NCBI GenBank assembly: GCA_963795075.1
Contig: CAWCFY010000002.1
Location: 164,180 to 228,179 of the forward strand
Direction: 5' to 3'
Origin: an uncultured Actinomycetota bacterium
GTDB lineage: Bacteria; Actinomycetota; Actinomycetes; Propionibacteriales; Nocardioidaceae
Length of the DNA: 64,000 nucleotides
The notes beneath the pieces were generated by a model, which did no database searches, was not told where the DNA came from, and worked only from the letters and a program-made list of their open reading frames with translations. Made by a program: the position numbers and the translations under genes. This document shows positions 1-51,469 of the stretch, piece after piece (positions within the stretch are counted from its first letter, which is position 1; each line of letters begins with the position of its first letter).

Positions 1-515
1 TCGTTGAGCGAGCAGTGCGTACGCCGCCCGGTGGCCGGGTCCTCGAGCACGAACATCCACATGCCCGGCGTGACCACCCCGGCCATCGGGCCGACGGTGC
101 TCCGGTGGTGGCACGGCTCCAGCGAGACCGAGGTGCCCGCCTCGAACAGGGCCACCGCGTCCTCCGGGTCCTCGACCAGGCCCTCCAGCGCGGCGCCGGC
201 CATCAGCCCACCGCGCAGCGGGCCGGAGGCGTGCTCCCAGGTGATCGGCGGGCCCGCGTGCAGGAACTCGCCGCGCTGGAGGCCGAGCACCTCGGCGGCC
301 GGGGCCACGTCGACGAGCGTCGCCGTGGAGCCCAGGAACGCGGCCAGCGCCCGGTCGTTGGCGTCGCGGCGCAGCGGGTCGGCCGCCACCGTGGCCAGGT
401 CGGCCTCGGTGCCGGCCACGGGGGGCTGCCAGTCGACGCGGGTGACCTCGACCGCCTGGGCGGACACCGCGTCGGCGAACAGGCCGGCGCCGACGTTGAC
501 CACGTGGGGGCTCAT
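1..515 (-). CDS. DUF1116 (YlbE/AllG-like) protein, C-terminus beyond window edge
   Basis: Hand translation of the minus strand from ATG at 515, with GGAGG 7 nt upstream: MSPHVVNVGAGLFADAVSAQ...EPCHHRSTVGPMAGVVTPGMW. The frame stays open to position 1, so it is absent from the ORF track. Family call is from memory. Confidence 0.55.
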   Translation of the reverse strand, partial: MSPHVVNVGAGLFADAVSAQAVEVTRVDWQPPVAGTEADLATVAADPLRRDANDRALAAFLGSTATLVDVAPAAEVLGLQRGEFLHAGPPITWEHASGPLRGGLMAGAALEGLVEDPEDAVALFEAGTSVSLEPCHHRSTVGPMAGVVTPGMWMFVLEDPATGRRTHCSLN

Positions 516-1985
516 GACCGGACCTCCGAGCAGCTCGACCGCGCGCCGGGTGGCGGCGGCGTTGGACAGGTGGACCTCGGCTCCCGCCTCGGCGAGCTGG
601 GACACCTGCCGGTCGAGGTCCTGCGGGTCGGCGCCGGTGCCGACGACGGCGACCACGACGGGCTGCCGGACGCGGGCGAGGACCGGGGCGAGCGCGGCCG
701 CCGGGTCGGGCTCGGCGCCGTGGCCGAGCACCACGTCGAGCAGGATCACCGCGGTCCGGTCGTCGGCCGCGGCGCGGGCGAGGTGCTCGAGGCGCAGCGA
801 GGGGTCGATCATCGGGTGCGCCCGCCCCGCGGTCAGCCCGTCGTCACCGAAGTCGACCATCGTGTGCGCGTCGAGGAGGTCGCCGTGGGGGTCGAGCGCC
901 AGCTCGGGCGAGAGCGGGATGTTGCTGCGCACCTCACCCAGGCCGGCGGCGGCAACGAGCATGGCCTCGTCGCACAGCGTGCCGCCGACGAACAGCCCCC
1001 GCAGCCACCGGCCGCCGGCGTGCTCCCGGGGTGCGGAAGGCAGGGTGGTCGGCCACGTCGGGACCGGGCGGCCGAGCCGGGCGAGGACGGACTCCGCAGC
1101 GGCGGTGAGGTCCGGCTGCCCGGGGCCGAGCAGCGCGAGCTCGACCGGGGTGGTCAGCGTGGCCGCGTGGGCCCGCACCACCTCGGCCACGGTGTCGGCG
1201 GGCGGCTTGGAGACGACCACGACGAGCTCCACGGCCGGGTCGGCGTCGAGCCGGTCGAGGGCCACCAGGGTGGCGGCACCGCCGACGTCGGTCGACAGGT
1301 CGCGGCCACCCACCCCCAGGGCCGAGGTGACTCCGACCCCGGCATGGTCGAGCAGGGCCAGCAGCTGCTGGCAGCCGGTGCCGGAGGCGGCGACCAGACC
1401 CACCGGGCCGGGCTGCACGGTGTTGGCGAAGCCGAGCCCCAGCCCGTCGACGACGGCGGTGCCGCAGTCGGGACCCATGACGAGCAGCCCGCGCTCGGCG
1501 GCCACCTGCTTGAGGGCGACCTCCTGCTCGACGGGCACGTTGTCGCTGAAGACCATCACGTCGCAGCCGGCGTCGAGGGCGTCCATCGCCTCGACCATTG
1601 CCGACGCGCCGGGCACCGAGACCAGCACCAGGCCGTCGGACACCCCGCGCAGGGCGGTCGCGGTGGTCCGTGGCGGGGCGACGTCGCGCGTCTCCCCGGC
1701 AGGCGTGCGCACCTCGCGCAGCGCGGCGTCGACGGCCGCGAGACCCGCGTCGAGGGCGCCGGGGTCGTCGAGGCGGAGGGCGACCACGAGGTCGTTGGGG
1801 GTCGCCTCGTCCGGCACCGAGAACCCCATCGAGGTGAGCACCTCGAGGTTGAGCGGCGTGGCCATCGCGACCTGGGCGGCGAGGACGCCCTCGGTCGAGG
1901 CGACGGTCCGGCTGACCTGGAGCAGGGTCACCGAGTCGGCGTACGCCCCGGGGCGGAGCTCGACGTGGGTCGTGGGCTCGCTCAT
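516..1985 (-). CDS. fdrA: FdrA-like (AllF) NDP-forming acyl-CoA-synthetase-type protein
   Basis: Minus-strand ATG at 1985 overlaps (ATGA) the stop of the upstream DUF2877 ORF. Hand translation: MSEPTTHVELRPGAYADSVTLLQVSR...VMVFSDNVPVEQEVALKQVAAERGLLVMGPDCGTAVVDG...ASGTGCQQL. There is no in-frame stop before the DUF1116 ATG at 515. Confidence 0.65.
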
Positions 1986-2673
1986 GCGGCCATCATGCTC
2001 GCCGCGATCTCGGCCGCGGCCCACCGGGCGCCCTCGAGCAGCCCGGAGCCGGTGGAGTGCCCCACTCCGAGGAGGCCGGCCTCGGCGAGCGGCAGGTCCG
2101 GGGTGCCCAGCGCGCGGAGGTACGCCGCGAACTGCGGCAGCACCTCGCCGTGCCGGGCGCAGTCCAGCAGGGTGGCCGACAGCAGCGTCGTGCGGGCGGT
2201 GGCTGCCCGGGTCGCCTCGTCGACGGCCGGGGTCGGCAGGCCGGCTGCCCGGTGCAGCGCCAACCATCCGCAGATCACGTCGTCGCCGCGCGGGGTGAGT
2301 CCGTCACCGGCGCCGAGGAGGTCAGGCACCCGGCGGCCAGGGGATCGGGCCGCCGGGACCCGCGGGCAGGTCCGCCGTGCGGACCCGGGGCACGGTCACG
2401 GAGTGCAAGACGACCCACGACCAACGGGACGCCGGAGAGGTGCAGCACGCCGGCGCGCACCTCGGCCGGTCCGCCGCCCAGCCGGCCCAGGTCGGGGCTG
2501 CGGGTGAGCAGGGCACACGGGACCCGGGTGGCGTGCTGGTCCACGACGCCGACGCACCAGCCGTCGAGGTCGACGTACACCGCGTGGGCCCCCCGGTGCA
2601 CCACCGGGACCGGTCCGTCGGCCGCGTCCGAGAGCCGCGCGTGGACGCGCGGCGGGGCGCTGGCGGGGATCAC
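1982..2673 (-). pseudogene. DUF2877 (YlbF/AllH-like) protein, frame-disrupted
   Basis: Two track ORFs in different frames, 2275..2673 and 1982..2329. The second carries LLGAGDGLTPRGDDVICGWL, a GLTPxGDD motif typical of DUF2877. The frame switch lies somewhere in 2330-2420. Confidence 0.6.
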
Positions 2674-2749
2674 AGCACCCGACGCTAGTCCTGCGGGTTA
2701 CCGTTTGCCGACGTGAGGTTGTGCCAACGATCTCGACAGGGGAGTGCAC

Positions 2750-4060
2750 ATGTTGCCAGCCGTGGCGGGCGCCGGAGGCGTTCAGGGTGCCAGCGCGGCA
2801 CTGGCCCGGGTGGACGCCCTGCACACCGCGCTGACCGAGATCGTGCTCGAGGGCGGCGACCTCGACCGGATCGCCGCCGAGGTGGCCCGGGTGCTGGACC
2901 TCGCGGTCGTGGTCACCTCCACCGACGGGCGCGAGCAGGCGTCGGCGGCGAGCCCCGAGGTCCGCGCCTCGCTGGCGGCCGAGCACCTGCTCGACGAGAC
3001 CGGCCGGATCCGGGTCGAGCGCATCGAGGAGGGCGGCGGCCATCCGCTGGGTCTCGGCGAGGTGCGGTCCCTGCGCGTGGTCGCCGGGGGAGCCGACCTC
3101 GGGCGGCTGGTGTGCCTGCGGGCCACCGCGCCGATCGCGACCGCCGACGTGCACGCCCTCGAGCGTGCGGCAGCGGTGGCCGCGCTGCTGATCACCCGTG
3201 AGCAGGCCGTCACGGCGGTGGAGAACAAGTACCAGGGCGACTTCCTGCGCGACGTGTTCCTCCGCCGGGCCGGTGGTGAGCAGTACGTCGCCGAGCACGC
3301 CGACACCTTCGGCTGGAACCTGCGCCGCCCCGTCGTCGTCGTGGTGGCCGAGCTCGACCCGCCGCTGCCGGAGGAGGAGCCGGTCGCCCGCGAGGTCCGC
3401 CGCGCCTGGCAGGAGCGCTTCTCCGCGGCCTGGGCCCAGGTCGCCCGGTCGCTGGACCCGACGATCCCGAGCGTCGACTTCTCCTCCGAGGTGGTCACCC
3501 TGCTCCCGCTCAGCGACACCGGCGAGCAGCCGGTCGCCGGGCACGCGGTCGTCGAGCGGGTGGTGCGCGAGGTCTCCGGCGACAAGGGCGGTGGCCGGCG
3601 GCCGTTCTCGGTCGGGGTGAGCCGGGCCGCGGGCAGCCTCGACGGCCTGCCGGCGGCGTACGGCCAGGCCCGGCGGGCGGTCGAGGTGGGCCGGTGGGTG
3701 GACGGCGGCGGCTCCCGCGCCTACTTCGACCAGCTGGGCGTGCACCGGCTGATCGCGCTGGTGCCCGACCGCAGCGAGCTGCGCGCCTTCGTCACCGACG
3801 TGCTCGGCCCGCTCGCGGAGGAGACCACCGAGGCGCGGGACCTGCGCGAGACGCTGCAGGTGCTGCTGGACACGAACTTCAACGTCGCCGAGGCGGCCCG
3901 GCTGCAGTTCTTCCACTACAACACGATGCGCTACCGGGTGGGCAAGCTCGAGCGACTCCTCGGCCCGCTGTCCCGGGACCCGCACCTGCGCCTCGACGTG
4001 GCGGTGGCGCTGCGGGTGCTGGAGGTCCTGTCCGGACCGGTGGACTGGTCCAGACCGTGA
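2750..4060 (+). CDS. PucR-family transcriptional regulator
   Basis: Track ORF 2744..4060. ATG at 2750 lies 5 nt after GGGGAG. The C-terminal sequence LLDTNFNVAEAARLQFFHYNTMRYRVGKLERLLG matches the PucR C-terminal HTH. Confidence 0.8.
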   Translation: MLPAVAGAGGVQGASAALARVDALHTALTEIVLEGGDLDRIAAEVARVLDLAVVVTSTDGREQASAASPEVRASLAAEHLLDETGRIRVERIEEGGGHPLGLGEVRSLRVVAGGADLGRLVCLRATAPIATADVHALERAAAVAALLITREQAVTAVENKYQGDFLRDVFLRRAGGEQYVAEHADTFGWNLRRPVVVVVAELDPPLPEEEPVAREVRRAWQERFSAAWAQVARSLDPTIPSVDFSSEVVTLLPLSDTGEQPVAGHAVVERVVREVSGDKGGGRRPFSVGVSRAAGSLDGLPAAYGQARRAVEVGRWVDGGGSRAYFDQLGVHRLIALVPDRSELRAFVTDVLGPLAEETTEARDLRETLQVLLDTNFNVAEAARLQFFHYNTMRYRVGKLERLLGPLSRDPHLRLDVAVALRVLEVLSGPVDWSRP

Positions 4061-4176
4061 CCAGATAGTTGCCATGGCCACCGGCGTTCCTTTGGCACCA
4101 CTCGCCGTCGTCGCGGTCTCATGGGCCTCATTAGGTTGTGGTTCTCTCGGTGACCACCGAGCGAGGAGGCAGTGCC

Positions 4177-5553
4177 ATGGCGTCGTTGTTCAAGTGGGAC
4201 GTGGTCCATCCCGCGCCGGGTGAGGCGGTCGCGCCGCACCAGCGCCTGACCTGGGGCCGGACCGCCGGCCTCGGAGCCCAGCACGTGGTCGCGATGTTCG
4301 GTGCGACCTTCGTGTTCCCGCTGGTGATGGGGCTCGACCCCAACCTGGCGATCATGTTCTCCGGGATCTGCACGATCCTGTTCCTGCTGATCTGCAGCAA
4401 CAAGGTGCCGAGCTACCTCGGCACCAGCGCCTCGTTCGTGGCCAGCGTCGCGGCGATCCGCTCGCAGGGCGGTGACTCCTCCGACGTGACCGGCGCGATC
4501 ATGATCGCCGGCATCGTGCTGCTCCTGGTCGGCGTGCTGGTGCACTTCTCCGGGACCGGCACGATCCACAAGATCCTGCCGCCGGCGGTGACCGGCGCGG
4601 TGGTCATGCTGATCGGCTTCAACCTGGCCCCGGTGGTCGCCGAGATCTACTGGCCCCAGGACCAGTGGGTGGCGCTGCTGACCGCCACCTTCATGATCTG
4701 CGCGGCGGTGCTGTTCCCGGGCTTCTGGTCCCGGATCGCGGTGTTCCTCGCGCTGATCTTCGGCTACGTCGTCTCCTGGCTCTTCGACGGCGTCTTCGGC
4801 CAGATCAACTCGCCCAACTCGCTGAACAACTTCGCCGTCGAGGAGCACGACCGGGTCACCTGGGCCGGGGTGCAGGCCGCCGACTGGATCGGCTTCCCGA
4901 GCGGGACGCTGGCCGACGGCGTCTCGGTGGTGCACGGCCCGAGCTTCTCGCTGACGTTCGTGCTGCTCGTGCTGCCCGGCGTGATCGCGCTCGTCGCCGA
5001 GAACACCGGCCACGTCAAGGCGGTCGCGGAGATGACCGGCGACGACCTCGACCCCTACATGGGCCGCGCGATCGGGGCGGACGGGTTCGCGACCGCGCTC
5101 GCCAGCGCGTTCGGCGGCTCGCCGACCACGACGTACGCCGAGAACATCGGGGTCATGGGCGCGACCCGGGTCTACTCGACCGCGGCCTACTACGTCGCCG
5201 CGGGCGTGGCCATCCTGCTCGGGCTGTGCCCCAAGTTCGGCGCCGTGGTCAGTGCCACCCCCGGTGGCGTTCTGGGTGGGATCACCGTGGTGCTCTACGG
5301 CATGATCGGACTGGTGGGAGCCAAGATCTGGGTGGAGAACCGGGTCGACTTCGGTCGTCCGGTCAACCTGGTGGGGCTGGCCGCCGGCATCATCGCCGGC
5401 ATCGGTGGCGTGACGTTGAAGTTCAGCGACGACTTCGAGCTCAGCGGCATCGCGCTCGGCACGATCCTGGTGATCGCCTACTTCCACCTGGTGGGCTCGG
5501 GCCGACGGTCCGGGGACGAACGCGGCGCCGACGAGGTGACCAAGGCCCTGTGA
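4177..5553 (+). CDS. NCS2/NAT-family nucleobase:cation symporter, UraA/RutG-like
   Basis: Track ORF 4138..5553. ATG at 4177 follows GAGGAGG. The protein is polytopic, with QHVVAMFGATFVFPL and AENTGHVKAV (E-x-x-G-H as in uracil permease, rather than the Q-N-x-G of xanthine permeases). Confidence 0.85.
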   Translation: MASLFKWDVVHPAPGEAVAPHQRLTWGRTAGLGAQHVVAMFGATFVFPLVMGLDPNLAIMFSGICTILFLLICSNKVPSYLGTSASFVASVAAIRSQGGDSSDVTGAIMIAGIVLLLVGVLVHFSGTGTIHKILPPAVTGAVVMLIGFNLAPVVAEIYWPQDQWVALLTATFMICAAVLFPGFWSRIAVFLALIFGYVVSWLFDGVFGQINSPNSLNNFAVEEHDRVTWAGVQAADWIGFPSGTLADGVSVVHGPSFSLTFVLLVLPGVIALVAENTGHVKAVAEMTGDDLDPYMGRAIGADGFATALASAFGGSPTTTYAENIGVMGATRVYSTAAYYVAAGVAILLGLCPKFGAVVSATPGGVLGGITVVLYGMIGLVGAKIWVENRVDFGRPVNLVGLAAGIIAGIGGVTLKFSDDFELSGIALGTILVIAYFHLVGSGRRSGDERGADEVTKAL

Positions 5554-6440
5554 AGCCAGCACCGTTCGACTATCTCCGGCCGGGGTCGCTCGCCGAGGCG
5601 ACGACGGCCCTGGCCGGGGAGCCGAACGCGAAGGTGCTCGCGGGAGGGCAGAGCCTGATCCCGCTGCTGTCGATGCGGCTGGCCGCGCCCACGCTGCTCG
5701 TCGACATCAACGGGCTGCCCGACCTGGCCGGCATCGAGGTCACCGACGCCGGCGTGCGGGTCGGTGCGCTGGCCCGGCACGCCGACGTGCTCGCCTCGGC
5801 CGAGGTACGCCGCGTGCAGCCGCTGGTCTCGCTGGCCCTGGCGCACGTGGCCCACGCCACGATCCGCAACCGGGGCACCACGGTCGGCTCGATCGTGCAC
5901 GCCGACGCGGCCGCGGAGATGCCGGTGGTGCTCACCCTGCTCGGCGGGTCGGTCGACGCCGAGTCGTCGGCCGGTCGACGGACCGTCGCCGCCGCGGACC
6001 TCTTCCTCGGGCCGCTGGAGACCTCGCTGCGCCACGACGAGGTCGCCGTCTCGGCATGGTTCCCGGCCCTCGACCCCGGGGCCGGAGTCGGCTTCGAGGA
6101 GGTCGCGCGCCGGCACGGCGACTACGCCATGTGCGGGGTGGCCGCGGTCGTGCACGTCGAGGACGAGACCGTCACCCGGGCGCACGCCGGGTACGTCTCG
6201 GTCGGCGAGGTCCCGGTCGTCGTCGACCTGACCCCCGCCTTCGCGGACGGCAGCGGTGACCCGGCGTACGTGCGAGCGGGCGAGCTGGCCCTGGACTCGC
6301 TCGACCCGGTCGAGGACCTGCACGCCACCGCGGCGTACCGCGCCCAGCTGGTCCGGGTGCTGACCGCGCGGGTCCTGCGCGCCGCCCACCAGGACGCGCG
6401 CGCACGCGCCGGCGCCGACCCGATCGGGAGGACCGGATGA
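5550..6440 (+). CDS. Molybdenum hydroxylase FAD-binding (medium, CoxM/XdhB-like) subunit
   Basis: GTG at 5550 overlaps the permease stop (GTGA). Translation: VKPAPFDYLRPGSLAEA...LAGGQSLIPLLSMRLAAPTLLVDINGL. Confidence 0.85.
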   Translation: MKPAPFDYLRPGSLAEATTALAGEPNAKVLAGGQSLIPLLSMRLAAPTLLVDINGLPDLAGIEVTDAGVRVGALARHADVLASAEVRRVQPLVSLALAHVAHATIRNRGTTVGSIVHADAAAEMPVVLTLLGGSVDAESSAGRRTVAAADLFLGPLETSLRHDEVAVSAWFPALDPGAGVGFEEVARRHGDYAMCGVAAVVHVEDETVTRAHAGYVSVGEVPVVVDLTPAFADGSGDPAYVRAGELALDSLDPVEDLHATAAYRAQLVRVLTARVLRAAHQDARARAGADPIGRTG

Positions 6441-6937
6441 GCGAGCAGCTGCACGACGTCCGCCTCGTCGTCAACGGAGCCGCCCACGACCTGCGGGTGC
6501 CGGCCCGCCGGCTGCTCTCCGACGCGCTGCGGCACGACCTGCGGCTCACCGGCACCCACGTGGGCTGCGAGCACGGCGTGTGCGGCGCCTGCACGGTGCT
6601 GCTCGACGGTCGGCCCACGCGGTCGTGCCTGGTGCTCGCGGTGTCGGCGCACGGCGCGGAGGTCACCACGGTCGAGGGGCTGACCGAGGCCGACGGCTCG
6701 CTCGGCCCGGTGCAGCAGGCGTTCGCCGAGTGCCACGGCCTGCAGTGCGGGTTCTGCACGCCGGGCTTCCTGACCACGATCACCGCCGGTCTGCGCGACA
6801 ACCCGCAGCCGTCGCGGGCCGAGGCCAAGGAGATGGTGGCCGGCAACCTGTGCCGCTGCACCGGCTACCAGAACATCGTCGCGGCCGTCGAGCGCGCCGC
6901 CGAGATCGCCGGTGGGATCGCCGGTGAGCGCGGATGA
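6437..6937 (+). CDS. Molybdenum hydroxylase (2Fe-2S)-binding small subunit (CoxS-like)
   Basis: ATGA overlap with the upstream gene. Contains CEHGVCGACTV and CGFCTPGF cysteine clusters. Confidence 0.9.
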   Translation: MSEQLHDVRLVVNGAAHDLRVPARRLLSDALRHDLRLTGTHVGCEHGVCGACTVLLDGRPTRSCLVLAVSAHGAEVTTVEGLTEADGSLGPVQQAFAECHGLQCGFCTPGFLTTITAGLRDNPQPSRAEAKEMVAGNLCRCTGYQNIVAAVERAAEIAGGIAGERG

Positions 6938-9360
6938 CCACCAAGCTCTTCGGCACCCCGGTGCAGCGGGTCGAGGACCAGCGGCTCCTGCGCGGCCTGG
7001 GCCGCTACGCCGACGACGTCGCCGTCGGCCCGGGCACGCTGCACGCCGCGGTGCTGCGCTCACCGCACGCCCACGCCCGCATCGTCGACATCGACGTCGG
7101 TGACGTGCTCGACGTCGACGGCGTGCACGCGGTGTGGACCCACGAGGACCTCACCGGCCCGATGGCCGAGCCGCTGCCCCTGCTGATCCCGCACCCGACG
7201 CTGACCCAGGGCCGCACGCAGTACGCGCTGGCGAAGGACGAGGTCAACTACGTCGGCGAGGCGGTCGCCTTCGTCGTCGCGGAGGACCGCTACCTCGCCG
7301 AGGACGCCGTCGACCGGATCCACGTCACCTGGCAGGTGCTCGAGCCGGTCGTGGGTCTCGAGCAGGCCCGGGCCGCCACCCGGCTCGTGCACGACGACGT
7401 GCCCGGCAACGTCGGCGCCCGGATGGAGCAGCACAACGGCGACGCGCCCGCGGCGGTGGCCTCGGCGCCGCACCGGCTCGAGCTCGACCTGACCATCGAG
7501 CGCAGCGCGTCGACGCCGCTGGAGGGGCGCGGCACGGTGGCCCGCTGGGACCCCGACATCAACCGGCTGCAGGTGTGGAGCTCGACGCAGACCTCGACCG
7601 GGGTGCGGGCCGTGGTGGCCACCAAGCTCGGGCTCGACCTCGCGCAGGTCGACGTGATCACGCCCGACGTCGGCGGCGGCTTCGGGGTGAAGATCAACCA
7701 CCCGTGGCCCGAGGAGCTGCTCGTCCCGCTGGCTGCGCGGACGCTCGGCCGGACGGTGAAGTTCACCGAGGACCGGCGCGAGCACTTCATCTCCTCCGCC
7801 CACGAGCGCGGGCAGGTCCACCACGTCGAGGTGGGCTTCGACGACGAGGGCCGGCTGCTCGGCCTCGACGTGCAGTTCTGGCACGACCACGGCGCGTACA
7901 CGCCGTACGGGCTGATCGTGCCGATCATCACCTCGACCCAGCTGCTCGGCCCCTACAAGCCGAAGAGCTACCGGGTCGTCTTCGAGTCGCTCTACACCAA
8001 CACGGTGATGGTCACGCCCTACCGTGGCGCCGGCCGGCCGCAGGGGTGCTACGTGATGGAGCGGACCATGGACGCGATCGCCGCGCACCTCGGCAAGGAC
8101 CGCGCCGACGTCCGCGCGGTCAACTTCATCCAGCCCGAGGAGTTCCCCTACGACCACGGGCTGGTCTTCCAGGACGGCCGCGAGCTGGAGTACGACTCCG
8201 GCGACTACCCGGCGCTGCTGACCAAGATCAAGGACCTCATCGCCTGGGACGAGTTCCCCGCGTTCCAGGCCGAGATGGCCGCCGAGGGACGCCGGGTCGG
8301 ACTCGGCCTCGCCTGCTACGTCGAGGGCACCGGCGTCGGTCCCTACGAGGGGGCGCACGTGCACGTGGAGACCTCGGGCAAGGTCAAGGTGGCCACCGGG
8401 CTGACCACCCAGGGGCAGGGGCACGCCACCGTGCTGGCCCAGCTCGTCGCCGACGAGCTCGGCTGCCGGTTCGAGGACGTCGAGGTGGTCACCGGCGACA
8501 CCCGGCGGATGCCGTACGCCGTCGGGACGTTCGCCTCCCGGGCGGCGGTGATGAGCGGCTCGGCGGTGCACCTGGCGGCCCAGCGCGCCAGGGAGAAGGT
8601 GCTCCAGATCGCCTCCGAGGCGCTGGAGGTCGACCCGGCGGACCTGCAGATCGCCGACGGCGTGGTCTCGGTGAAGGGGGCCCCCGGTGCCTCGATCGAC
8701 CTCGGCACGGTCTCGGTGCTCTCCAACCCGCTGCGCTACGCCTTCGACGAGGCGTCCAAGGCGGCCACCCAGTTCTCCGTCGGCGACCCGGGCAAGCCGC
8801 CGGTGCCCGAGGACGAGGAGCCGGGCCTGGAGGGCCGCGACTTCTACTCCCCGGAGCGGGCGACCTTCGCCGCCGGGATGCACGCGGTGATCGTGGAGAC
8901 CGACCCGGAGACCGCGGAGATCACGATCCTGAAGTACGCCGTGGTCCACGACTGCGGCAACCTGATCAACCCGATGATCGTCGAGGGCCAGATCCACGGC
9001 GGCGTCGCCCAGGGCGTGGGCGGCGCGCTCTACGAGCGGATGGCCTACGACGAGAACGGGCAGCTGCAGAACGCCTCGTTCATGGACTTCTTGATGCCCT
9101 ACGTCACCGAGGTCCCCGACACCATCGACATCGACCACCTCCAGACCCCCTCCCCGCTGAACCCGCTCGGCATCAAGGGCGCCGGGGAGGCCGGGGTGAT
9201 CCCCTCCGCAGCGGTCTTCGCCGCCGCGATCGAGGACGCCGAGGGCATCGCGATCACCGCGATGCCGATCTCGCCCTCCGACCTGTTCACCCTGCGCCAG
9301 TCGTCGCTCGACGCGGGCGCGCAGGGTCCGTCTCGAGACCACCCCGAGGAGACCCGATGA
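6934..9360 (+). CDS. Molybdopterin-binding large subunit, xanthine dehydrogenase family (form-II CoxL-like)
   Basis: 808 aa. Contains GGGFGVK and VTPYRGAGRPQG (the AYRGAGR-type motif, not the AYxCSFR of true CO dehydrogenase). Start is translationally coupled (ATGA). Confidence 0.9.
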   Translation: MTTKLFGTPVQRVEDQRLLRGLGRYADDVAVGPGTLHAAVLRSPHAHARIVDIDVGDVLDVDGVHAVWTHEDLTGPMAEPLPLLIPHPTLTQGRTQYALAKDEVNYVGEAVAFVVAEDRYLAEDAVDRIHVTWQVLEPVVGLEQARAATRLVHDDVPGNVGARMEQHNGDAPAAVASAPHRLELDLTIERSASTPLEGRGTVARWDPDINRLQVWSSTQTSTGVRAVVATKLGLDLAQVDVITPDVGGGFGVKINHPWPEELLVPLAARTLGRTVKFTEDRREHFISSAHERGQVHHVEVGFDDEGRLLGLDVQFWHDHGAYTPYGLIVPIITSTQLLGPYKPKSYRVVFESLYTNTVMVTPYRGAGRPQGCYVMERTMDAIAAHLGKDRADVRAVNFIQPEEFPYDHGLVFQDGRELEYDSGDYPALLTKIKDLIAWDEFPAFQAEMAAEGRRVGLGLACYVEGTGVGPYEGAHVHVETSGKVKVATGLTTQGQGHATVLAQLVADELGCRFEDVEVVTGDTRRMPYAVGTFASRAAVMSGSAVHLAAQRAREKVLQIASEALEVDPADLQIADGVVSVKGAPGASIDLGTVSVLSNPLRYAFDEASKAATQFSVGDPGKPPVPEDEEPGLEGRDFYSPERATFAAGMHAVIVETDPETAEITILKYAVVHDCGNLINPMIVEGQIHGGVAQGVGGALYERMAYDENGQLQNASFMDFLMPYVTEVPDTIDIDHLQTPSPLNPLGIKGAGEAGVIPSAAVFAAAIEDAEGIAITAMPISPSDLFTLRQSSLDAGAQGPSRDHPEETR

Positions 9361-9974
9361 AGATCAGCGGCGAGGCCGTCCTGCACGCCCCGGTCGAGCG
9401 GGTCTGGGACGCGGTGCTCGACCCCACCGTGCTGGTGCGCACGATCCCGGGCTGCGAACGGCTCGAGTCCGCGGGGGAGCACGCCTACTCGATGACGGTC
9501 ACCGCCGGGGTCGCGTCGATCCGGGGCACCTACGCCGGCTCGTGCGTGCTCTCCGACCTGCAGCCGCACGAGTCGCTGCTGATGAAGCTCGAGGGGTCCG
9601 GTGCGCCGGGCACGATCGGGGCCGACGTACGCGTCGGGTTCCGCGACGGCGGCGACGGCACCACCACGCTCAGCTACGACGCCGAGGCCGTCGTCGGCGG
9701 CATGGTCGGCGGCGTCGGCCAGCGGATGCTGACCAGCGTCTCGCGGCGGATGGCGGCGGAGTTCTTCGGCAACATCGACGCGGTGCTCACCGGCACGGCG
9801 GCGCCGCCCGCGGTGGAGGTGTCGGCTGCCGCCTCGGGCGAGGGCCAGGTGTTCACCGCACCCGCGGGTGCCGCGTCCGGGGCGCCGAGCCAGGACTTCT
9901 ACCGCGGGGTGGCCGTGGGGGCCGGTCTGGTGCTGCTGGGCGTCGCCGCCGGCGTGGTGCTCGGCCGCCGGTGA
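9357..9974 (+). CDS. CoxG-like SRPBCC protein with C-terminal TM anchor
   Basis: ATG at 9357 overlaps the large-subunit stop. Translation: MKISGEAVLHAPVERVWDAVLDPTVLVRTIPGCERLE..., with a hydrophobic tail GVAVGAGLVLLGVAAGVVLG. Confidence 0.75.
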   Translation: MKISGEAVLHAPVERVWDAVLDPTVLVRTIPGCERLESAGEHAYSMTVTAGVASIRGTYAGSCVLSDLQPHESLLMKLEGSGAPGTIGADVRVGFRDGGDGTTTLSYDAEAVVGGMVGGVGQRMLTSVSRRMAAEFFGNIDAVLTGTAAPPAVEVSAAASGEGQVFTAPAGAASGAPSQDFYRGVAVGAGLVLLGVAAGVVLGRR

Positions 9975-9981
9975 GCCGGCG

Positions 9982-11384
9982 ATGAGCGACCTGGGCGTCG
10001 ACTCCACGGCGCGCGAGCAGGCGGCCGCCGTGCGCGCCGGGTCGATCTCCGCCCGCGAGCTGCTCGACCTGCACCTGCATCGGATCGCGGAGCGCAACCC
10101 CGAGCTCAACGCGATCGTCTCGCTCGACGAGGAGCGCGCTCGCGACGGCGCCGCCGCGGCCGACGAGGTGCTGGCGTCCGGAGCCGAGGTCGGCGCCGCT
10201 GCACGGCCTGCCGCACGCGTTCAAGGACACCCACGCGGTCGCCGGCTGGCGGACGACGTACGGCTCGCCGCTGTACGCCGACCACGTGCCCGAGACCGAC
10301 GAGCTGCTGGTCGAGCGCATCCGCGCGGGCCGGGGTGGTGGTGATCGGCAAGACCAACGTGCCGGAGTTCGCCGCCGGCTCGCACACGTTCAACCCGGTC
10401 TTCGGCACCACGCTGAACCCGGTCGACCCCACCCGGTCGGCGGGCGGGTCGAGCGGCGGAGCGGCGTGCGCGCTGGCCACCGGGATGGTCCCGCTCGCCG
10501 AGGGGTCGGACATGGGCGGCTCGCTGCGCAACCCGGCGTCGTTCTGCGGGGTCGTGGGCCTGCGTCCCTCCCTGGGCCGGGTGCCGGAGTGGCCGCTGTA
10601 CAACCAGTGGGAGACCACCTCGGTGGGCGGGCCGATGGCCCGCAACGTCGGCGACCTGGCGCTGCTGCTCTCGGTCGTCGCCGGCCCCGACCCCCGCGCG
10701 CCGCAGGCGCTGGGCGACCCGGGGGCGGCGTTCGCACCGCCGGTCGCGGCGTCGCTGGCCGGGGTCCGGGTGGCGCTGTCGGTCGACCTCGGCGGCGCGT
10801 TCGAGGTGGACCACGACGTGGCGGCCGTGGTCGAGTCGTCGGCCTCGCTCTTCGCCGCGGGTGGCGCGTCGGTGGCCCCGGCGTACCCCGACCTGGCCGA
10901 GGCCGACGACACCTTCCGCACCCTGCGGGCCTGGCACCTGCACGCCAAGTTCGCCGACCTGCTGGCCGCGCACCCGGACTCGTTCAAGCAGTCGCTGGCC
11001 GACAACATCCGGGCCGGCGAGCCGCTGACCGGCGCCGACGTCGCCCGCGCCTACGCCCAGCGGACGGCGCTCTCGGAGCGGATGCGGGAGTTCTTCCGCG
11101 ACCACGACGTGCTGGTGCTGCCGGTCTCGCAGGTGCCGCCGTTCCCGGCCGACCAGGAGTTCCCCACCGAGATCAACGGCCGGCCGATGCAGACCTACCT
11201 GGACTGGATGCGGGCGGCGTACCTGATCACCGTCACCGGCTGCCCGGCGATCTCGGTGCCGGCCGGGCACACGCCGGAGGGGCTGCCGGTGGGCATCCAG
11301 ATCGTCGGCCCGCACGGGTCGGAGCGGCGGCTGCTCGAGATCGCGGCGGGCTTCGAGGCGGCGTACACCCCGACCCGCCCCTAG
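9982..11384 (+). pseudogene. Amidase-signature (AS) family amidase, two frame disruptions
   Basis: Three consecutive frames. First: MSDLGVDSTAREQAAAVRAGSISARELLDLHL...AEVG. Second: PLHGLPHAFKDTHAVAGWRTTYGSPLYADHVPETDELLVERIRAG. Third: VVIGKTNVPEF...GGSSGGAACALATGMVPLAEGSDMGGSLRNPASFCG. The switches lie near 10196 and 10330, each consistent with one extra nucleotide. Confidence 0.8.
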
Positions 11385-11393
11385 AGTCGTGGC

Positions 11394-42154: not shown

Positions 42155-44242
42155 ATGAGCCCGCGCGCCTCCCGCACGATCCGGATCGGCATCGACACGG
42201 GCGGCACCTTCACCGACGTGGTGGCCTTCGACGAGGTCTCCGGGGACGTCGTCACCACCAAGACCCCCTCGACGCCCGCCAACCCGGCCGACGGGTTCCT
42301 GGCCGGCATCGACAAGGTGCTCGAGCTGCTCGGGGCCGACGCCGGGGCGATCGACGCGGTCAGTCACGGCACCACGGTGGCCACCAACCAGCTGCTCGAG
42401 GGCAAGGTCGACCGGCTCGGGTTCGTCACCACGGCCGGCTACGAGTCGATGCTGGAGATCGCCCGCCAGTCGGTGCCCGACGGCTACGGCAACTCCTATT
42501 TCTGGGTGAAGCCCAGCCGCATCGTCCCGCGCGACCTCGTGCGGGGCGTCGGGGGGCGGCTGGACTTCACCGGGGCGGAGGTGCGCCCCTTCGACGAGGA
42601 GTCCGCCCGCGCCACCGCCCGGTGGTTCCGGGCGCAGGGCGTGACCACGCTCGGCGTCTGCTTCCTGCACGCCTACGCCAACCCCGAGCACGAGGAGCGG
42701 ATGCGCGCGGTGCTCGCCGAGGAGCACCCGGACGCCGTGGTCTCGCTGAGCAGCGAGGTGCTGCGCGAGTACCGCGAGTACGAGCGGGCGATGACCACGC
42801 TGGTCGACGCCGCCGTCAAGCCGCGGCTCTCGGCGTACGTCACCAACATCAAGACCCGCCTCGACGCCCTCGACCGGCGCGAGATCCCGTTCTACGTGAT
42901 GAAGTCCAACGGCGGCGTGCTCTCCGCCGACGAGGTCGTGCACCAGCCGATCACCACCGTGCTCTCCGGCCCCGCCGCCGGGGCGCTGGGGGCGGCGCTG
43001 ATCGCCCAGGTCGCCGGGTTCGACCGGGTGCTCACCAGTGACGGCGGCGGGACGTCGACCGACGTCTCGGTGGTCATCGACGGCGAGCCCACGCTGACCA
43101 CCGAGGGCACCGTCGGCGCGTTCCCCTCCAAGATCCCGATGATCGACGTGGTCACCGTCGGCGCCGGCGGCGGCTCGATCGCGTGGCTCTCGCCCGAGGG
43201 CACCCTCAAGGTCGGTCCGCACTCGGCCGGCGCCGACCCGGGCCCGCTCTGCTACGGCAAGGGCGGCACCGACGTCACCATCACCGACGCGCACGTCGTC
43301 CTCGGCCGGATCCCGCCGCACCTGCTGGGTGGGGAGATCCCGCTCGACGTCGACGCGGCCCGCGCCGGCGTCGAGACGCTGGCCGAGCAGCTCGGGCTCA
43401 GCCCGGAGGCCTGCGCCAGCGGCGTCCTGGAGATCTCCGCGTGGAACCAGGCCAACGCGCTGCGCCAGGTCACCGTCAAGCGCGGGCTCGACGTGCGCGA
43501 CTTCACCCTGACCACCTTCGGCGGCTCGGGCTCGCTGCTGCTGTGCCGGCTGATGGACGTGCTCGGTGTGCGCACGGTGCTGGTGCCGCCCAACCCCGGC
43601 AACGTCTCCGCCTTCGGCCTGCTGACCGTGGACGTGAAGAACGACTACGTGCGCACGCAGGTCGCCCTCGCCGAGGCGTTGTCGCCCGACGACGTGGGTG
43701 GCATCTACGCCGAGCTCACCGACCAGGCCCGGCGCGCGCTGGTCCAGGAGGGCTTCGCCGACGAGGAGCACCAGTTCGTGCGCACGGCCGACCTGCGCTA
43801 CTTCGGGCAGGCCTACGAGGTGCGGGTCGGCGTACCCGACGGTGCGGTCGACCGGGACGTGCTCACCGGGGTCGCCGACCGCTTCCACGCCGAGCACCGC
43901 GCGCTGTACGGCTACGACTTCGCCCACGACGACAGCCAGCAGGTGGAGTGGGTCAACCTGCGCGTCTCCGGCATCGGCCCGATCCAGCGGCCCGAGATCC
44001 AGCGGCACCCGCGCGCGGAGTCGCCGGCCGTCACGCCCACCGGTCACCGGAAGGTCTGCTTCGACCCCGCCGACGGGTACGCCGAGACGCCGGTGCTGTG
44101 GCGAGCCGACCTCGCGCCCGGCACCGTGCTGACCGGACCCGCCGTCGTCGAGGAGTTCGGCTCCACGGTGCCGCTGCACCCGGGCTTCACGGCGCGAGTC
44201 GACGAGTACCTCAACCTGATCGTCACCAGGAGCCAGCAGTGA
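42155..44242 (+). CDS. hyuA: Hydantoinase/oxoprolinase A subunit
   Basis: ATG at 42155. Translation: RIGIDTGGTFTDVVAFD...TSDGGGTSTDVS. Confidence 0.85.
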   Translation: MSPRASRTIRIGIDTGGTFTDVVAFDEVSGDVVTTKTPSTPANPADGFLAGIDKVLELLGADAGAIDAVSHGTTVATNQLLEGKVDRLGFVTTAGYESMLEIARQSVPDGYGNSYFWVKPSRIVPRDLVRGVGGRLDFTGAEVRPFDEESARATARWFRAQGVTTLGVCFLHAYANPEHEERMRAVLAEEHPDAVVSLSSEVLREYREYERAMTTLVDAAVKPRLSAYVTNIKTRLDALDRREIPFYVMKSNGGVLSADEVVHQPITTVLSGPAAGALGAALIAQVAGFDRVLTSDGGGTSTDVSVVIDGEPTLTTEGTVGAFPSKIPMIDVVTVGAGGGSIAWLSPEGTLKVGPHSAGADPGPLCYGKGGTDVTITDAHVVLGRIPPHLLGGEIPLDVDAARAGVETLAEQLGLSPEACASGVLEISAWNQANALRQVTVKRGLDVRDFTLTTFGGSGSLLLCRLMDVLGVRTVLVPPNPGNVSAFGLLTVDVKNDYVRTQVALAEALSPDDVGGIYAELTDQARRALVQEGFADEEHQFVRTADLRYFGQAYEVRVGVPDGAVDRDVLTGVADRFHAEHRALYGYDFAHDDSQQVEWVNLRVSGIGPIQRPEIQRHPRAESPAVTPTGHRKVCFDPADGYAETPVLWRADLAPGTVLTGPAVVEEFGSTVPLHPGFTARVDEYLNLIVTRSQQ

Positions 44243-46195
44243 CCACGACCGGCCACGACCCGACCGCCGGCGAGAGCCGCCGCGCGCCCACGCAGTTCCC
44301 GTTCGGGATGCTCACCGACGACGCGGGCGCGAGCGCCGACCCGGTGCTCGTCGAGATCGTGCAGGGCTCGCTGGCCTCGGTGGAGATGGAGGTCGAGACC
44401 GCGATCGGGCGCACCTCGCGCAGCCCGATGATCCGCGACGCCCACGACTTCCGCGCCGGCATCCACGACCGGCTGCTGCGCAAGCTCACCGGTCGCTCGT
44501 ACTCGGCGCTGGTGCACCCGGTCGCCCGCGACTTCCCGCTGGCGGAGATGGCCGAGGGCGACGTGTTCTTCCACAACGACGTCTACCGCTCCGAGGGCGG
44601 GATCGGTCACCTGCCCGACCTGTGCGTCACCGTGCCGGTCTTCGCCGGTCCCGACGACGACCGGCAGGTGGTCGCGTTCGTGCAGGCGTTCGGCCATCAC
44701 GACGACATCGGGGGAGCGGTCCCGGGATCGATGCCCTCGCACGCGACCAGCGTCTTCGAGGAGGGCCTGATGGTCCCCCCGATCCGGCTGTGGGACGCGG
44801 GCGTGCCCAACAAGGCGGCGCTGGCGATCATGACCCGCAACTCGCGGATGCCGGAGAGCCTGGCCGCCGACCTCGACGCCGAGTGCTCGGCCTGCCTGAT
44901 GGGGGCGCGCCGCCTCGGCGAGCTGTTCGACCGCTACGGCGTGGAGACCGTCGAGTCCTGCTTCGACGCGATCATCGACCGGACCACCACGACGTACCGC
45001 CGCGAGATCCTCTCCCAGATCCCCGTCGGGCAGTGGGTGTGGGAGGACTACGCCGAGCACGACGGCGTCGACGAGCCGCAGCTGCACGCCCAGCGGATCA
45101 CCCTGACCCGCACGCCCGCCGACGATCCCGACGGCGAGCGGCTCGTCCTCGACTTCGCCGGCACCAGCGCCCAGGCGAAGGGGCCGATCAACCACTGCGG
45201 CGACTACAGCGACGGCGTGTTCCTGAAGAAGTGGCTCGCGCCGATCCTGCGCAACCTCGCCGAGAGCCCCGAGCGGATGGCCGAGCTCGACGTCAACGAG
45301 GGCATCGTGCCGCTGATCGACCTGCGCTTCCCGCCGCCCGGCACGTTGCTGACGCCGGTCTTCCCGGCGCCCACCAACGCGCGGACCTTCGTGATCCTCC
45401 GGCTGCTCGGCGTGCTCGCCGGGGTTGTCGCCAAGGCCGTGGACGGGCGGATGCCGGCCGACCAGGAGACCATCCGCTACACCGGGGTGTACGGCGAGGA
45501 CCGCGAGGGCCGCCCCTACCTGATGCGTGAGGTGCTCGGCGGCGGCTCCGGCGGGCGCTACTACGCCGACGGCGAGGACACCATCCACGTGGTCCCCGAC
45601 TCGCGCAACCTGCCCAGCGAGTTCACCGAGTCGCGTTTCCCCTTCCTGGTCGAGAGCCTCGGGCTGGCGATGGACTCCGGAGGGGCTGGCAAGTTCCGCG
45701 GCGGCCTCGGCTACGAGAAGCACATCCGGATGCTCGAGGACGGCCACTTCATGTCGATCGCGGACCGGTCGATCCTGGCCTGCTGGGGGGTCAAGGGCGG
45801 GCTGGCCGGGTCGCCCTTCGAGGTGGTCATCGACCCGGACGGACCGCACGAGCGGGTCGTCGACGCCCTCGCGGACGACGAGCCCGTGCAGGCCGGTGAG
45901 GTGATCCGGATCCGCACCACCGGCGGCGGCGGGCTGGGGCAACCCGCTCGAGCGGGATCCGGCGCTCGTCGTGCGCGACGTGGTCTGGCGCAAGGTCTCC
46001 CCGGAGGCGGCGCTGACCTACTACGGCGTGGTGCTCACCGGCTCGCTCGACGACGACTCGCTCGGCTTCGACGCCGACGCGACGGCGGCCGAGCGGGAGT
46101 CGCGACCCGCGGCCTCCGCGGCGTTCTTCGACCGCGGTCCCGGCTACGCCCGGCTGGCCGGGGGAGCGGCGTACGCCGACGTGGACCTGGTGTGA
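44239..46195 (+). pseudogene. hyuB: Hydantoinase B/oxoprolinase subunit, one frame disruption near the 3' end
   Basis: GTGA start overlap. Contains DPVLVEIVQGSLASVEMEVETAIGRTSRSPMIRDAHDFRAG. The frame switches near 45932 and the C-terminus continues WGNPLERDPALVVRDVVWRKVSPEAALTYYGVVL. Confidence 0.8.
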
Positions 46196-46208: not shown

Positions 46209-46952
46209 GTGGGTGTGAGCACGCGGGTCGCGGTCGTCGGCGGGCACGGCAAGACCGGTCGTGCGGTGGCCGACGCACTGGTGGCCCACGGCGCCGACGT
46301 GGTCACCACCGGGCGCTCCGAGCACGACGGTCCGGTGGTCCGGCTGGCGGCCGCGTTGCGCGGGTGCGACGCGGCGTACCTGATCGCGCCCAACCTGCAC
46401 CCCGACGAGCCGGCGTACGTCGCGCACGCTCTCGAGGCCGCCCGCCTCGCCGGGATCACCCGCGTCGTCCACCACTCGGTGGCCTCGCCCTACGCGCCGA
46501 CGATGCCGCACCACCTGGGCAAGGCGATCGCCGAGGACCTCGTGCGGCGCAGCGGGCTCACCTGGACGATCCTCCAGCCCGGGCCCTACCTGCAGAACCT
46601 CGACCTGACCACGACCGTGCGGCTGCCCTACCGGGCCGACGCGGTCTTCGGGTTCGTCGACCTCGCCGACGTCGGGGAGGCCGCCGCGGTGGTGCTGCTC
46701 CAGGGCGGCCACGCCGGGGCGACGTACGAGCTGGCGACGCGGAGCGCGACCGTGGCCGAGCTGGCCGCGGAGGCGGGCGTCGACGTGGTCGTCGACCGCG
46801 ACCGGGACGACCACGGGCTCACGGACCGCGAACGGGACTGGTTGGCGGCGATGTTCGCCCACTACGACGCCTACGGACTCCCGGTCGGGACGCTGCCGTT
46901 GCGCGCGCTGCTGGGACGGCCGGCGCCCTCGGTCACTAGGTTCGAGCCATGA
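46209..46952 (+). CDS. NmrA-like/SDR-type NAD(P)-binding protein
   Basis: Contains VAVVGGHGKTGRAVADAL. Confidence 0.7.
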   Translation: MGVSTRVAVVGGHGKTGRAVADALVAHGADVVTTGRSEHDGPVVRLAAALRGCDAAYLIAPNLHPDEPAYVAHALEAARLAGITRVVHHSVASPYAPTMPHHLGKAIAEDLVRRSGLTWTILQPGPYLQNLDLTTTVRLPYRADAVFGFVDLADVGEAAAVVLLQGGHAGATYELATRSATVAELAAEAGVDVVVDRDRDDHGLTDRERDWLAAMFAHYDAYGLPVGTLPLRALLGRPAPSVTRFEP

Positions 46953-47917
46953 GGGTCCTGCTCGCGCTCGGTGGCAACGCCATGACCAACGCCGAGGGAC
47001 GCGCCCGCCCCGAGGACCAGATCGCGGCCGCGCGGGTCGCCGCCGACTCGGTGGCCGACCTGATCGCCCGCGGCGACGAGGTCGTGGTCACCCACGGCAA
47101 CGGCCCCCAGGTGGGCAACCTGCTGGTCAAGAACGAGCTCGCCGCGGCCGTCGTACCCCCGGTGCCGCTGGACTGGTGCGGCGCGCAGACCCAGGCCACG
47201 CTCGGCTTCGTGCTGATGAACGCCCTCGACGCGGCCCTGCGCGAGCGCGGCGTCGACCGGCGTACGGCGACCGTGGTCACCCGCACCCGGGTCAGCGCCG
47301 ACGACCCCGGCTTCACCCGGCCGACCAAGCCGATCGGGCGCTACCTCTCCGCCGACGAGGCCGGGCTGCTCGTCGAGCACGGCGAGACCTGGGAGGACCG
47401 CGGCGAGAAGGGGTGGCGCCGCGTCGTCGCGTCACCCGAGCCACGGGAGATCCTCGACGCCGCCGCCATCGAGGCGCTGGTCGGCAGTGGGTTCACGGTG
47501 ATCGCCAACGGTGGCGGCGGGATCCCGGTCGTCGTCGAGGACGACGGCAGCCTGCGCGGCGTCGAGGCGGTCATCGACAAGGACCTCGGTGCCGGGCTGC
47601 TGGCGCGCTCCGTGGCCGCCGACGTGCTGGTGATCGCCACCGACGTGCCGCAGGCCGTGCTCCGCTTCGGCACGCCCGACGCCACCCCGGTCGGCCGGGT
47701 GAGTGTCTCCGAGCTGCGCGCCCTCGCCGCGGAGGGCCACTTCGCGAGCGGCTCGATGGGCCCGAAGGTCGACGCCGCCTGCCGGTTCGTCGAGCAGGGC
47801 GGCAGCCGCTCGGTGATCACCAGTCTCGACCACATCCTTCAGGCGGTGTCCGGCGAGGCCGGCACCGTCGTCGTACCCGACACCCACCCGTCCGACCCCA
47901 CCCGAGGAGAGCAGTGA
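46949..47917 (+). CDS. arcC: Carbamate kinase
   Basis: Translation: [12 protein letters not shown]...[15 protein letters not shown]...[13 protein letters not shown] overlap with the upstream gene. Confidence 0.9.
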
Positions 47918-51405: not shown

Positions 51406-51469
51406 GCCCCGACTCAACCACCGTGGGTCGGGGTCGCGGAACCGCGGGTGGTGACATCGCCGCGTCGGT

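Follow-up and report, generated by a model that had tools for sequence, protein, structure and literature searches.

A window of 64,000 nucleotides (nt) of DNA from an uncultured actinobacterium of the Nocardioidaceae was analyzed, and two of its parts, bases 1-11,384 and 42.1-51.5 kb, read as the separated halves of a single gene cluster, conserved in actinobacteria, for the oxidative breakdown of pyrimidines. An operon in the first half encodes the FAD, 2Fe-2S and molybdenum (Mo) subunits of a Mo hydroxylase, which we predict with a probability of roughly 0.75 to be a uracil/thymine dehydrogenase, while the second half carries a barbiturase gene. The oxidative route was described in the 1950s, and soil isolates from the same decade also showed the activity. 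The assignment is made because enzymes of the Mo hydroxylase family hydroxylate a ring carbon next to a nitrogen, and because barbiturase needs barbiturate. The only described biological source of barbiturate is the oxidation of uracil (PMC3758960). The original prediction for this stretch had proposed that the operon could encode such a dehydrogenase, and this proposal is now supported by the linkage of the operon to barbiturase genes, by a corresponding operon in Rhodococcus, by the distance of the enzyme from xanthine dehydrogenase (XDH) and by the UraA-type residues of the accompanying permease. It had also stated that the dehydrogenase is not known to have a firmly assigned gene, and no gene assignment to uracil dehydrogenase was found in the searchable literature. 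To our knowledge, ureidomalonase, the third enzyme of the route, is likewise without an assigned gene.

The window consists of actinobacterial DNA with a GC content of about 72%, and its nearest relatives are members of the genus Nocardioides. Genes were mapped by the phase of third-position GC, by translation and by Pfam and NCBIfam scans. The first half comprises the following features:

1..515, minus strand: AllG (DUF1116) subunit of an AllFGH-type carbamoyltransferase (Pfam PF06545 AllG, E = 1.3e-12)
519..1985, minus strand: AllF (FdrA) subunit (NCBIfam FdrA subfamily, 397 bits, cutoff 433; Pfam Ligase_CoA)
1982..2673, minus strand: AllH (DUF2877) subunit (Pfam PF11392 AllH, E = 1.6e-17, C-terminal frame)
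2744..4060, plus strand: PucR-family transcriptional regulator (Pfam GGDEF_2 and HTH_30)
4138..5553, plus strand: NCS2 nucleobase permease with a uracil-type site (Pfam Xan_ur_permease; UraA residues)
5550..6440, plus strand: FAD-binding medium subunit of the Mo hydroxylase (Pfam FAD_binding_5 and CO_deh_flav_C)
6437..6937, plus strand: small subunit with two [2Fe-2S] clusters (Pfam Fer2 and Fer2_2)
6934..9360, plus strand: molybdopterin large subunit (MoL) with a PYRGAGR loop (Pfam Ald_Xan_dh_C, MoCoBD_1 and MoCoBD_2)
9357..9974, plus strand: CoxG-like SRPBCC protein (Pfam COXG, 80 bits)
9982..11384, plus strand: amidase-signature (AS) amidase, frame-broken (Pfam Amidase, 272 bits, C-terminal 349 amino acids (aa))

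The second half comprises:

42155..44242, plus strand: HyuA-type subunit of the ATP-dependent lactamase/oxoprolinase family (Pfam Hydant_A_N, Hydantoinase_A and Hydant_A_C)
44239..46195, plus strand: HyuB-type subunit with a +1 insertion at about 45931 (Pfam Hydantoinase_B, 437 bits)
46209..46952, plus strand: NmrA-like NAD(P)-binding protein (Pfam NAD_binding_10 and NmrA)
46949..47917, plus strand: carbamate kinase (NCBIfam NF009007, 316 bits, cutoff 266; arcC, 351 bits)
47919..49022, plus strand: barbiturase, converting barbiturate to ureidomalonate (679 bits against 5hwe)
50227..51507, minus strand: family III CoA-transferase (Pfam CoA_transf_3, 387 bits)

All elements named in the original prediction were found where it had placed them. 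The tight coupling it had described for the operon behind the PucR gene is visible at the junctions, with a GTGA start-stop overlap between the permease and FAD subunit genes, ATGA overlaps at FAD/2Fe-2S, 2Fe-2S/MoL and MoL/CoxG, and a gap of 7 nt between the CoxG and amidase genes. The FdrA/DUF1116/DUF2877 trio likewise lies divergently upstream on the minus strand, as judged by the Pfam matches, with an ATGA overlap between allH and allF and with allHFG diverging from the PucR gene. Only about 170 of the approximately 467 residues of AllG are inside the window, since the gene continues off its left edge; in related genomic loci (L081, L082, L084-L086 and L088 in our numbering) the gene at this position encodes a complete orthologue of 462-475 aa. 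AllF is 89% identical to its counterpart in L084, and orthologues of the PucR protein (65-91% identical) stand at the same position in L081, L082, L084, L085 and L086. PucR is likely to be the regulator of the pathway cluster.

The barbiturase-family gene reported at 47.9 kb proved to encode a true barbiturase, as its score of 679 bits for the Rhodococcus erythropolis enzyme (5hwe) exceeds the 324 bits reached with the best-matching cyanuric acid hydrolase. It is about 83-85% identical to the characterized Rhodococcus enzyme and 83% identical to the protein of R. qingshengii. It also passes the NCBIfam AtzD equivalog (470 bits against a cutoff of 360), and a PGAP-style name of cyanuric acid amidohydrolase would be wrong. 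The carbamate kinase gene is coupled to the barbiturase gene.

Co-occurrence of the Mo hydroxylase operon with barbiturase genes had been named as a test of the proposal. For this purpose 80 genomic loci with a barbiturase 86-95% identical to that of the window were searched, with 10 kb flanks, using the window proteins, and in eight of them the operon stands in the barbiturase run, with genes for the FeS subunit, MoL, CoxG, amidase, HyuA, HyuB, in part the NmrA-like protein, carbamate kinase and barbiturase following one another on the same strand. The eight belong to Nocardioides psychrotolerans, N. donggukensis, N. terrigena, N. nematodiphilus, Pseudonocardia spirodelae, P. acidicola and two metagenome-assembled genomes; their MoL proteins are 79-88% and their amidases 74-84% identical to those of the window. 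In N. donggukensis and P. acidicola the whole cluster of about 15 genes is contiguous: AllH, AllF and AllG genes point away from the PucR gene, which is followed by those for permease, FAD subunit, FeS subunit, MoL, CoxG, amidase, HyuA, HyuB, NmrA-like protein, carbamate kinase and barbiturase and, in part, CoA-transferase. Six further MoL contexts repeat the upstream half exactly, three of them with a barbiturase gene 13-15 kb downstream on the same contig (record coordinates L087/L023, L088/L027 and L089/L043). AllFGH lies upstream in all nine MoL contexts, window included, and in the other contexts examined all three of its genes are present and intact. Around the barbiturase gene itself, carbamate kinase is encoded directly upstream in 77 of the 80 loci, the three exceptions (L013, L051 and L070) being loci without a full-length carbamate kinase match for which little or no upstream sequence was retrieved. 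HyuB, the NmrA-like protein (42 loci) and the CoA-transferase (50 loci) were each found in 42-50 of the 80 at a query coverage of at least 50%.

In the window, about 38 kb lie between the end of MoL at 9360 and the start of barbiturase at 47919, and a mix of unrelated genes of about 30 kb (11.4-41.2 kb) parts the two halves. HyuA of the window is 84-86% identical to orthologues encoded directly 3′ of the amidase in other genomes. As contiguous and 13-15 kb arrangements exist in relatives, the separation seen here is read as derived; the closest relative, whose MoL is 96% identical, shows the same break point after the amidase gene.

The enzymes of the oxidative pyrimidine pathway were characterized in R. 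erythropolis JCM 3132 (PMC3961730, PMC3758960), a strain identical to the genetically tractable CCM2595 (PMC3961730). In the R. erythropolis group, the candidate dehydrogenase genes and barbiturase occur together: next to a UPRTase gene, barbiturase is followed by amidase, class III aminotransferase, NCS2 permease, FAD subunit (300 aa), FeS subunit (214 aa), Mo subunit (840 aa), a CoxG-like protein, HyuA, HyuB and an NmrA-like protein, with the amidase gene coupled to the 3′ end of the barbiturase gene. Upstream of this operon are genes for a CoA-transferase, a fused AccD/AccA-like carboxyltransferase, two PucR proteins, a second permease and XdhC. Identities between the Rhodococcus proteins and those of the window are as follows:

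Mo subunit: 63% (992 bits)
FeS subunit: 67%
FAD subunit: 55%
Permeases: 63-67%, with shared AENxGH and ENIG motifs
CoA-transferase: 61%
Barbiturase: 83%
Amidase: 41%

That the same genes recur in a different order in three actinobacterial families argues strongly for functional coupling. With the uracil/thymine dehydrogenase of R. erythropolis JCM 3132 the enzyme of the window would share the expected chemistry, the barbiturase cluster and the 63%-identical orthologue in that species group. It differs in the way it is known: the Rhodococcus enzyme is an activity for which no published gene was found, whereas the enzyme of the window is known from its sequence.

All domains of the FAD, FeS and Mo subunits score above the Pfam gathering thresholds, and the three proteins together make up a three-subunit Mo hydroxylase of the xanthine oxidase family. 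In this family, a Glu near the C-terminus of the Mo subunit acts as catalytic base. This residue is kept in MoL, whose IKGAGEAG stretch corresponds to IKGMGESA in quinoline oxidoreductase and to AKGLGEIG in 7dqx. The best matches of MoL in the Protein Data Bank (PDB), both over the full length, are quinoline 2-oxidoreductase (1t3q, 436 bits) and 6-hydroxypseudooxynicotine dehydrogenase (7dqx, 431 bits). These enzymes resemble the one studied here in the arrangement of three subunits, in their set of domains, in the Glu and in a related xYRGxG loop (AYRGVGF and AYRAPGR, compared with PYRGAGR in MoL), but their scores of about 430 bits stand against 992 bits for the Rhodococcus orthologue, and the gene context differs, with a pyrimidine permease and barbiturase in the present case. 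A second test named beforehand, the distance to characterized hydroxylases, also came out in favor of a separate enzyme: XDH structures in the PDB score about 150 bits, the XdhA, XdhB and PucD equivalogs give 409, 383, 277 and 271 bits against cutoffs of 780, 916, 850 and 784, respectively, and every substrate-specific NCBIfam equivalog is below its cutoff. The PYRGAGR motif ascribed to the Mo subunit is present at residue 363 (VTPYRGAGRPQG).

The permease carries the predicted E-x-x-G-H motif. In an alignment to the solved structure of UraA, which is its sole PDB match, AENTGH falls on AEHVGH and ENIGVMGATR on ENIGVMAITR. These positions are the uracil-binding Glu241 and His245 of transmembrane helix (TM) 8 and Glu290 of the TM10 signature. 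In the NCBIfam scan, RutG (331 bits, cutoff 759) and UraA (252 bits, cutoff 477) rank well above pbuX (150 bits). The protein shares the fold family with RutG and UraA and keeps the equivalents of these three residues. It differs from both in remaining below their equivalog cutoffs, and so is a separate actinobacterial subfamily.

Following its database name, the Mo enzyme would be an aerobic (form II or 'group 5') carbon monoxide (CO) dehydrogenase. MoL passes the NCBIfam 'exception' model NF040766 ("CODH_aero_grp5"), which names aerobic CO dehydrogenase large subunits, with 1496 bits against a cutoff of 950, almost every homologue bears this name, and with the form I CoxMSL enzymes of Oligotropha and Mycobacterium (1n5w, 8uem) it shares the protein family, the M-S-L gene order and the CoxG partner. 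However, the loop of MoL reads VTPYRGAGR and not AYXCSFR, the active-site loop of true CO dehydrogenases with the Cys that carries copper (PMC4053681, PMC13203968), so that the copper-binding Cys of form I CoxL is missing; PYRGAGR has been termed atypical (PMC4053681). The curated form I CoxL model TIGR02416 gives 447.6 bits against a cutoff of 991. The enzyme also departs from canonical form II, as its loop begins with P instead of A and its genes are ordered M-S-L instead of the coxS-L-M order used to define this form (PMC13203968), whose role in CO oxidation is itself in doubt (PMC13203968). As no coxD/E/F-type genes are present, and a nucleobase permease, an amidase and the linkage to barbiturase are found instead, a CO dehydrogenase is hardly credible. 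A module for purines or ureides, in which a xanthine- or purine-type hydroxylase would stand beside an AllFGH enzyme and a carbamate kinase acting on allantoin-derived oxalurate while the proximity of barbiturase would be incidental, is very unlikely. The PucR-family regulator and the NCS2 permease would fit such a module, and so would AllFGH, shown experimentally to be an oxamate carbamoyltransferase co-operonic with a carbamate kinase (PMC11326118). Against it speak the remoteness of XDH and of the XdhA, XdhB and PucD equivalogs, a permease that scores much higher for RutG and UraA than for pbuX and whose E/H/E residues are not of the xanthine type, the lack of allantoin-pathway genes beside AllFGH in nine contexts, and a barbiturase linkage that is kept in three families and two gene orders. 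It is unlikely, too, that the enzyme acts on a different N-heterocycle of the same catabolic island (4/6-hydroxypyrimidine, isocytosine, 5-substituted uracils, barbiturate, or a substrate or product of HyuAB) while uracil is oxidized by something else. No close characterized relative fixes the substrate of MoL, the core members HyuAB and NmrA show that the cluster exceeds the three textbook steps, and the Rhodococcus operon contains a class III aminotransferase. Yet barbiturase needs barbiturate, and uracil oxidation is the sole biological source described for it (PMC3758960). The two cluster types have no other oxidoreductase in common, and the permease encoded in the operon shows the residues with which UraA binds uracil.

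Several points nevertheless weigh against a uracil/thymine dehydrogenase. The assignment draws wholly on gene linkage and homology, the model NF040766 passed by MoL names a different enzyme, and PucR regulators as well as AllFGH classically have functions for purines and ureides. That the purified uracil/thymine dehydrogenase is composed of Mo, FAD and FeS subunits is assumed here, following the original prediction. HyuA, HyuB and the NmrA-like protein are core members of both the Nocardioides and the Rhodococcus cluster types and have no step in the route, which means that either the pathway as drawn here is incomplete or the true set of substrates is wider. In addition, the amidase, AllH and HyuB genes and the AllF/AllG junction are frame-broken as assembled, and if these breaks are real, the pathway of this strain would be defective. 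The module of the window could then be a decaying remnant, with real pseudogenes for amidase, AllH and HyuB and a cluster that has been broken apart, which we regard as rather unlikely. In favor of it are five frame breaks in pathway genes, the inverted DUF222 repeat and the roughly 30 kb of unrelated genes that lie between the halves, and a cluster amidase that is also shortened or uncalled in L086, L087 and L088. The AS amidase that had been predicted as part of the operon is indeed present, but not as an intact open reading frame. Its orthologues are unbroken, with lengths of about 465-474 aa, and an alignment to those in L016, L021, L050 and L075 shows one inserted base near 10194 and another near 10325. 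The N-terminus, the stretch with the catalytic Lys and the remaining 349 residues consequently lie in three frames, with third-position GC following the shifts; the motifs FKDT, GGSSGG and GSDMGGS can be recognized, it takes the removal of both extra bases to bring the Lys motif into frame, and the resulting protein of 466 aa passes NCBIfam NF005686 (468 bits against 465). Further +1 insertions were localized by comparison in AllH at about 2410 (placed against L084), in HyuB at about 45931 and at about 522, where AllF loses its stop and reads through into AllG. The 64 kb contain at least seven or eight frame breaks, the others being at about 20.3 kb (minus strand), 28.4 kb (plus strand) and 33.9 kb (minus strand), and they also affect unrelated genes, namely those for a P450, an ornithine-cyclodeaminase-like protein, DUF1611 and both DUF222 copies. 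All five breaks localized against orthologues are single-base insertions in G/C-rich sequence, with neither stop codons nor deletions, the shifted frames retain in full both their similarity to known proteins and a third-position GC of up to 0.98-1.00, and the closest relative, which has the same split, possesses intact pathway genes throughout, including amidase, AllH, AllF and AllG. Because every localized break is an insertion and the coding signal is preserved across each, the breaks are probably errors of an unpolished, insertion-biased assembly and not decay of the pathway.

Downstream of the amidase gene, a DUF480 gene (11385-12002) and a SAM-methyltransferase domain (11689-12642) overlap in two frames. 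The closest relative has a single DUF480 gene of 280 aa at the position matching 11385-12642, and the overlap is probably a further frame break or a fusion. Shortening of the cluster amidase was also observed in three other genomes, one of them complete (CP059163), where it is 314 or 368 aa long or uncalled (L086 13539-14483; L087 11083-12809; L088 11429-12535), so that this amidase may be dispensable or error-prone.

If the Mo enzyme is a uracil/thymine dehydrogenase, the route would start with the import of uracil or thymine by the uracil-type NCS2 permease, as suggested by its conserved UraA residues. The enzyme encoded at 5550-9360 would then hydroxylate uracil at C6 to give barbiturate (EC 1.17.99.4), an assumption based on gene linkage and family chemistry, and the electrons would pass from Mo to FeS to FAD and from there probably to a membrane quinone, with the help of CoxG. 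Enzymes of EC 1.17.99.4 convert uracil to barbiturate, or thymine to 5-methylbarbiturate, with the aid of an acceptor. The CoxG-like protein, which is kept after MoL in all contexts examined and ends in a hydrophobic tail (...VAVGAGLVLLGVAAGVVLGRR), is likely to be a membrane or quinone coupling partner. Opening of barbiturate to ureidomalonate by barbiturase is well supported by the identity of about 83-85% to the characterized enzyme.

For the cleavage of ureidomalonate two variants may be considered. In the route described for Rhodococcus the amidase would hydrolyze ureidomalonate to urea and malonate, whereas in the Nocardioides type an AllFGH-type enzyme might use phosphate to split ureidomalonate into malonamate and carbamoyl phosphate, from which carbamate kinase would form ATP, while the amidase would hydrolyze malonamate. 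AllFGH of Escherichia coli is an oxamate carbamoyltransferase that forms oxamate and carbamoyl phosphate from oxalurate and phosphate, and its genes are co-operonic with that of the catabolic carbamate kinase AllK (PMC11326118). The FdrA/DUF1116/DUF2877 trio had been regarded as uncharacterized bystanders, a view that does not hold, as DUF1116 and DUF2877 are now the Pfam families AllG and AllH of oxamate carbamoyltransferase subunits and all three subunits are encoded in the window. Ureidomalonate is oxalurate with one additional methylene group. With the E. coli allFGHK genes the cluster has in common the Pfam families of the three subunits, the co-clustered carbamate kinase and presumably an N-acylurea substrate; unlike there, the order is allH-allF-allG, carbamate kinase adjoins barbiturase and not allH, no allantoin genes are nearby, and FdrA, whose NCBIfam score was used to gauge orthology to the E. 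coli protein, is below the cutoff of 433 bits both in the window (397 bits) and in L084 (389 bits). Genes for uricase, allantoinase, allantoicase and ureidoglycolate dehydrogenase were not seen adjoining AllFGH in any of the nine contexts.

AllFGH and carbamate kinase co-vary, as both are present in the Nocardioides-type cluster and neither occurs in about 32 kb around the Rhodococcus barbiturase. This suggests two variants of the pathway, a hydrolytic Rhodococcus type and a phosphorolytic, ATP-yielding Nocardioides type. More specifically, but only tentatively and with the odds somewhat against it, the cluster of Nocardioides and Pseudonocardia could employ AllFGH as a 'malonamate carbamoyltransferase', gain ATP through carbamate kinase and use the AS amidase as a malonamidase, without hydrolysis to urea. 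A ring-opening amidohydrolase combined with a carbamoyltransferase and a carbamate kinase has a precedent in nucleobase catabolism (PMC4016543). The identity of 41% between the amidases of the two cluster types fits a change of substrate, and the amidase is a candidate for either ureidomalonase (EC 3.5.1.95) or malonamidase. Its matches in the PDB and NCBIfam are generic amidases only; malonamidase E2 (86 bits, far down the match list), allophanate hydrolase and AtzE are all distant. We know of no ureidomalonase sequence. Carbamate kinase, HyuAB and the CoA-transferase, none of which appeared in the original prediction, are likely to change the chemistry expected after barbiturase.

Malonate would subsequently be activated by the family III CoA-transferase, a candidate malonate CoA-transferase whose nearest NCBIfam models are succinate-glutarate and oxalate CoA-transferases, all below cutoff. 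A fused AccD/AccA-like carboxyltransferase of about 500 aa is encoded between CoA-transferase and carbamate kinase in about 18 of the barbiturase loci (e.g., L029, L032, L035, L061, L062, L064, L066, L072-L074 and L078) and also beside the CoA-transferase in Rhodococcus, with L083 4340-5851 as a further example. This protein is a candidate malonyl-CoA decarboxylase, and together with the CoA-transferase it would fit a conversion of malonate via malonyl-CoA to acetyl-CoA. A small deaminase of the CDA fold, which may act on cytosine, is encoded in eight loci. A search of the window for the carboxyltransferase, a CDA-fold deaminase, UPRTase, XdhC and a class III aminotransferase yielded no hit. 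For HyuAB, the nearest model is caprolactamase, far below its cutoff; possible roles of HyuAB and the NmrA-like protein are the ring opening of 5-methylbarbiturate derived from thymine or a dihydropyrimidine side route.

Between barbiturase and CoA-transferase the window also encodes a DUF7715 protein (49089-49505, plus strand) and a hemerythrin-domain protein (49587-50222, minus strand), neither of which was found adjoining barbiturase in the 80 related loci. Within the stretch that parts the cluster halves, two DUF222/HNH-type genes form an inverted repeat (13686-15071 and 29262-30629) with arms of about 1.4 kb that are 90-98% complementary. It brackets about 14 kb of unrelated genes and may be linked to the rearrangement of the cluster or to an invertible segment. 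An Arr-type rifampin ADP-ribosyltransferase gene is found at 18047-18478 on the plus strand (Pfam Arr-ms, 167 bits).

With regard to databases, the PYRGAGR clade to which MoL belongs (proteins P0002-P0120 and P0241-P0360 of our collection) is named aerobic CO dehydrogenase by NCBI and JGI via NF040766, and a few of its members are labelled xanthine or caffeine dehydrogenase. The naming as CO dehydrogenase is probably a systematic misannotation, and it inflates estimates of environmental CO oxidizers, a concern that has already been raised (PMC13203968). If the dehydrogenase assignment is true, it would provide the first substrate for a clade of 'form II-like CoxL' proteins. A conserved candidate operon makes the question of the uracil dehydrogenase directly testable, all the more as a copy of it is present in the Rhodococcus strain in which the enzymology was done. 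The pairing of carbamate kinase with barbiturase and its co-variation with AllFGH further point to an unrecognized harvest of ATP from the ureido group of pyrimidines; if true, this would mean an energy-conserving variant of oxidative pyrimidine breakdown and a second physiological substrate for the AllFGH class of enzymes.

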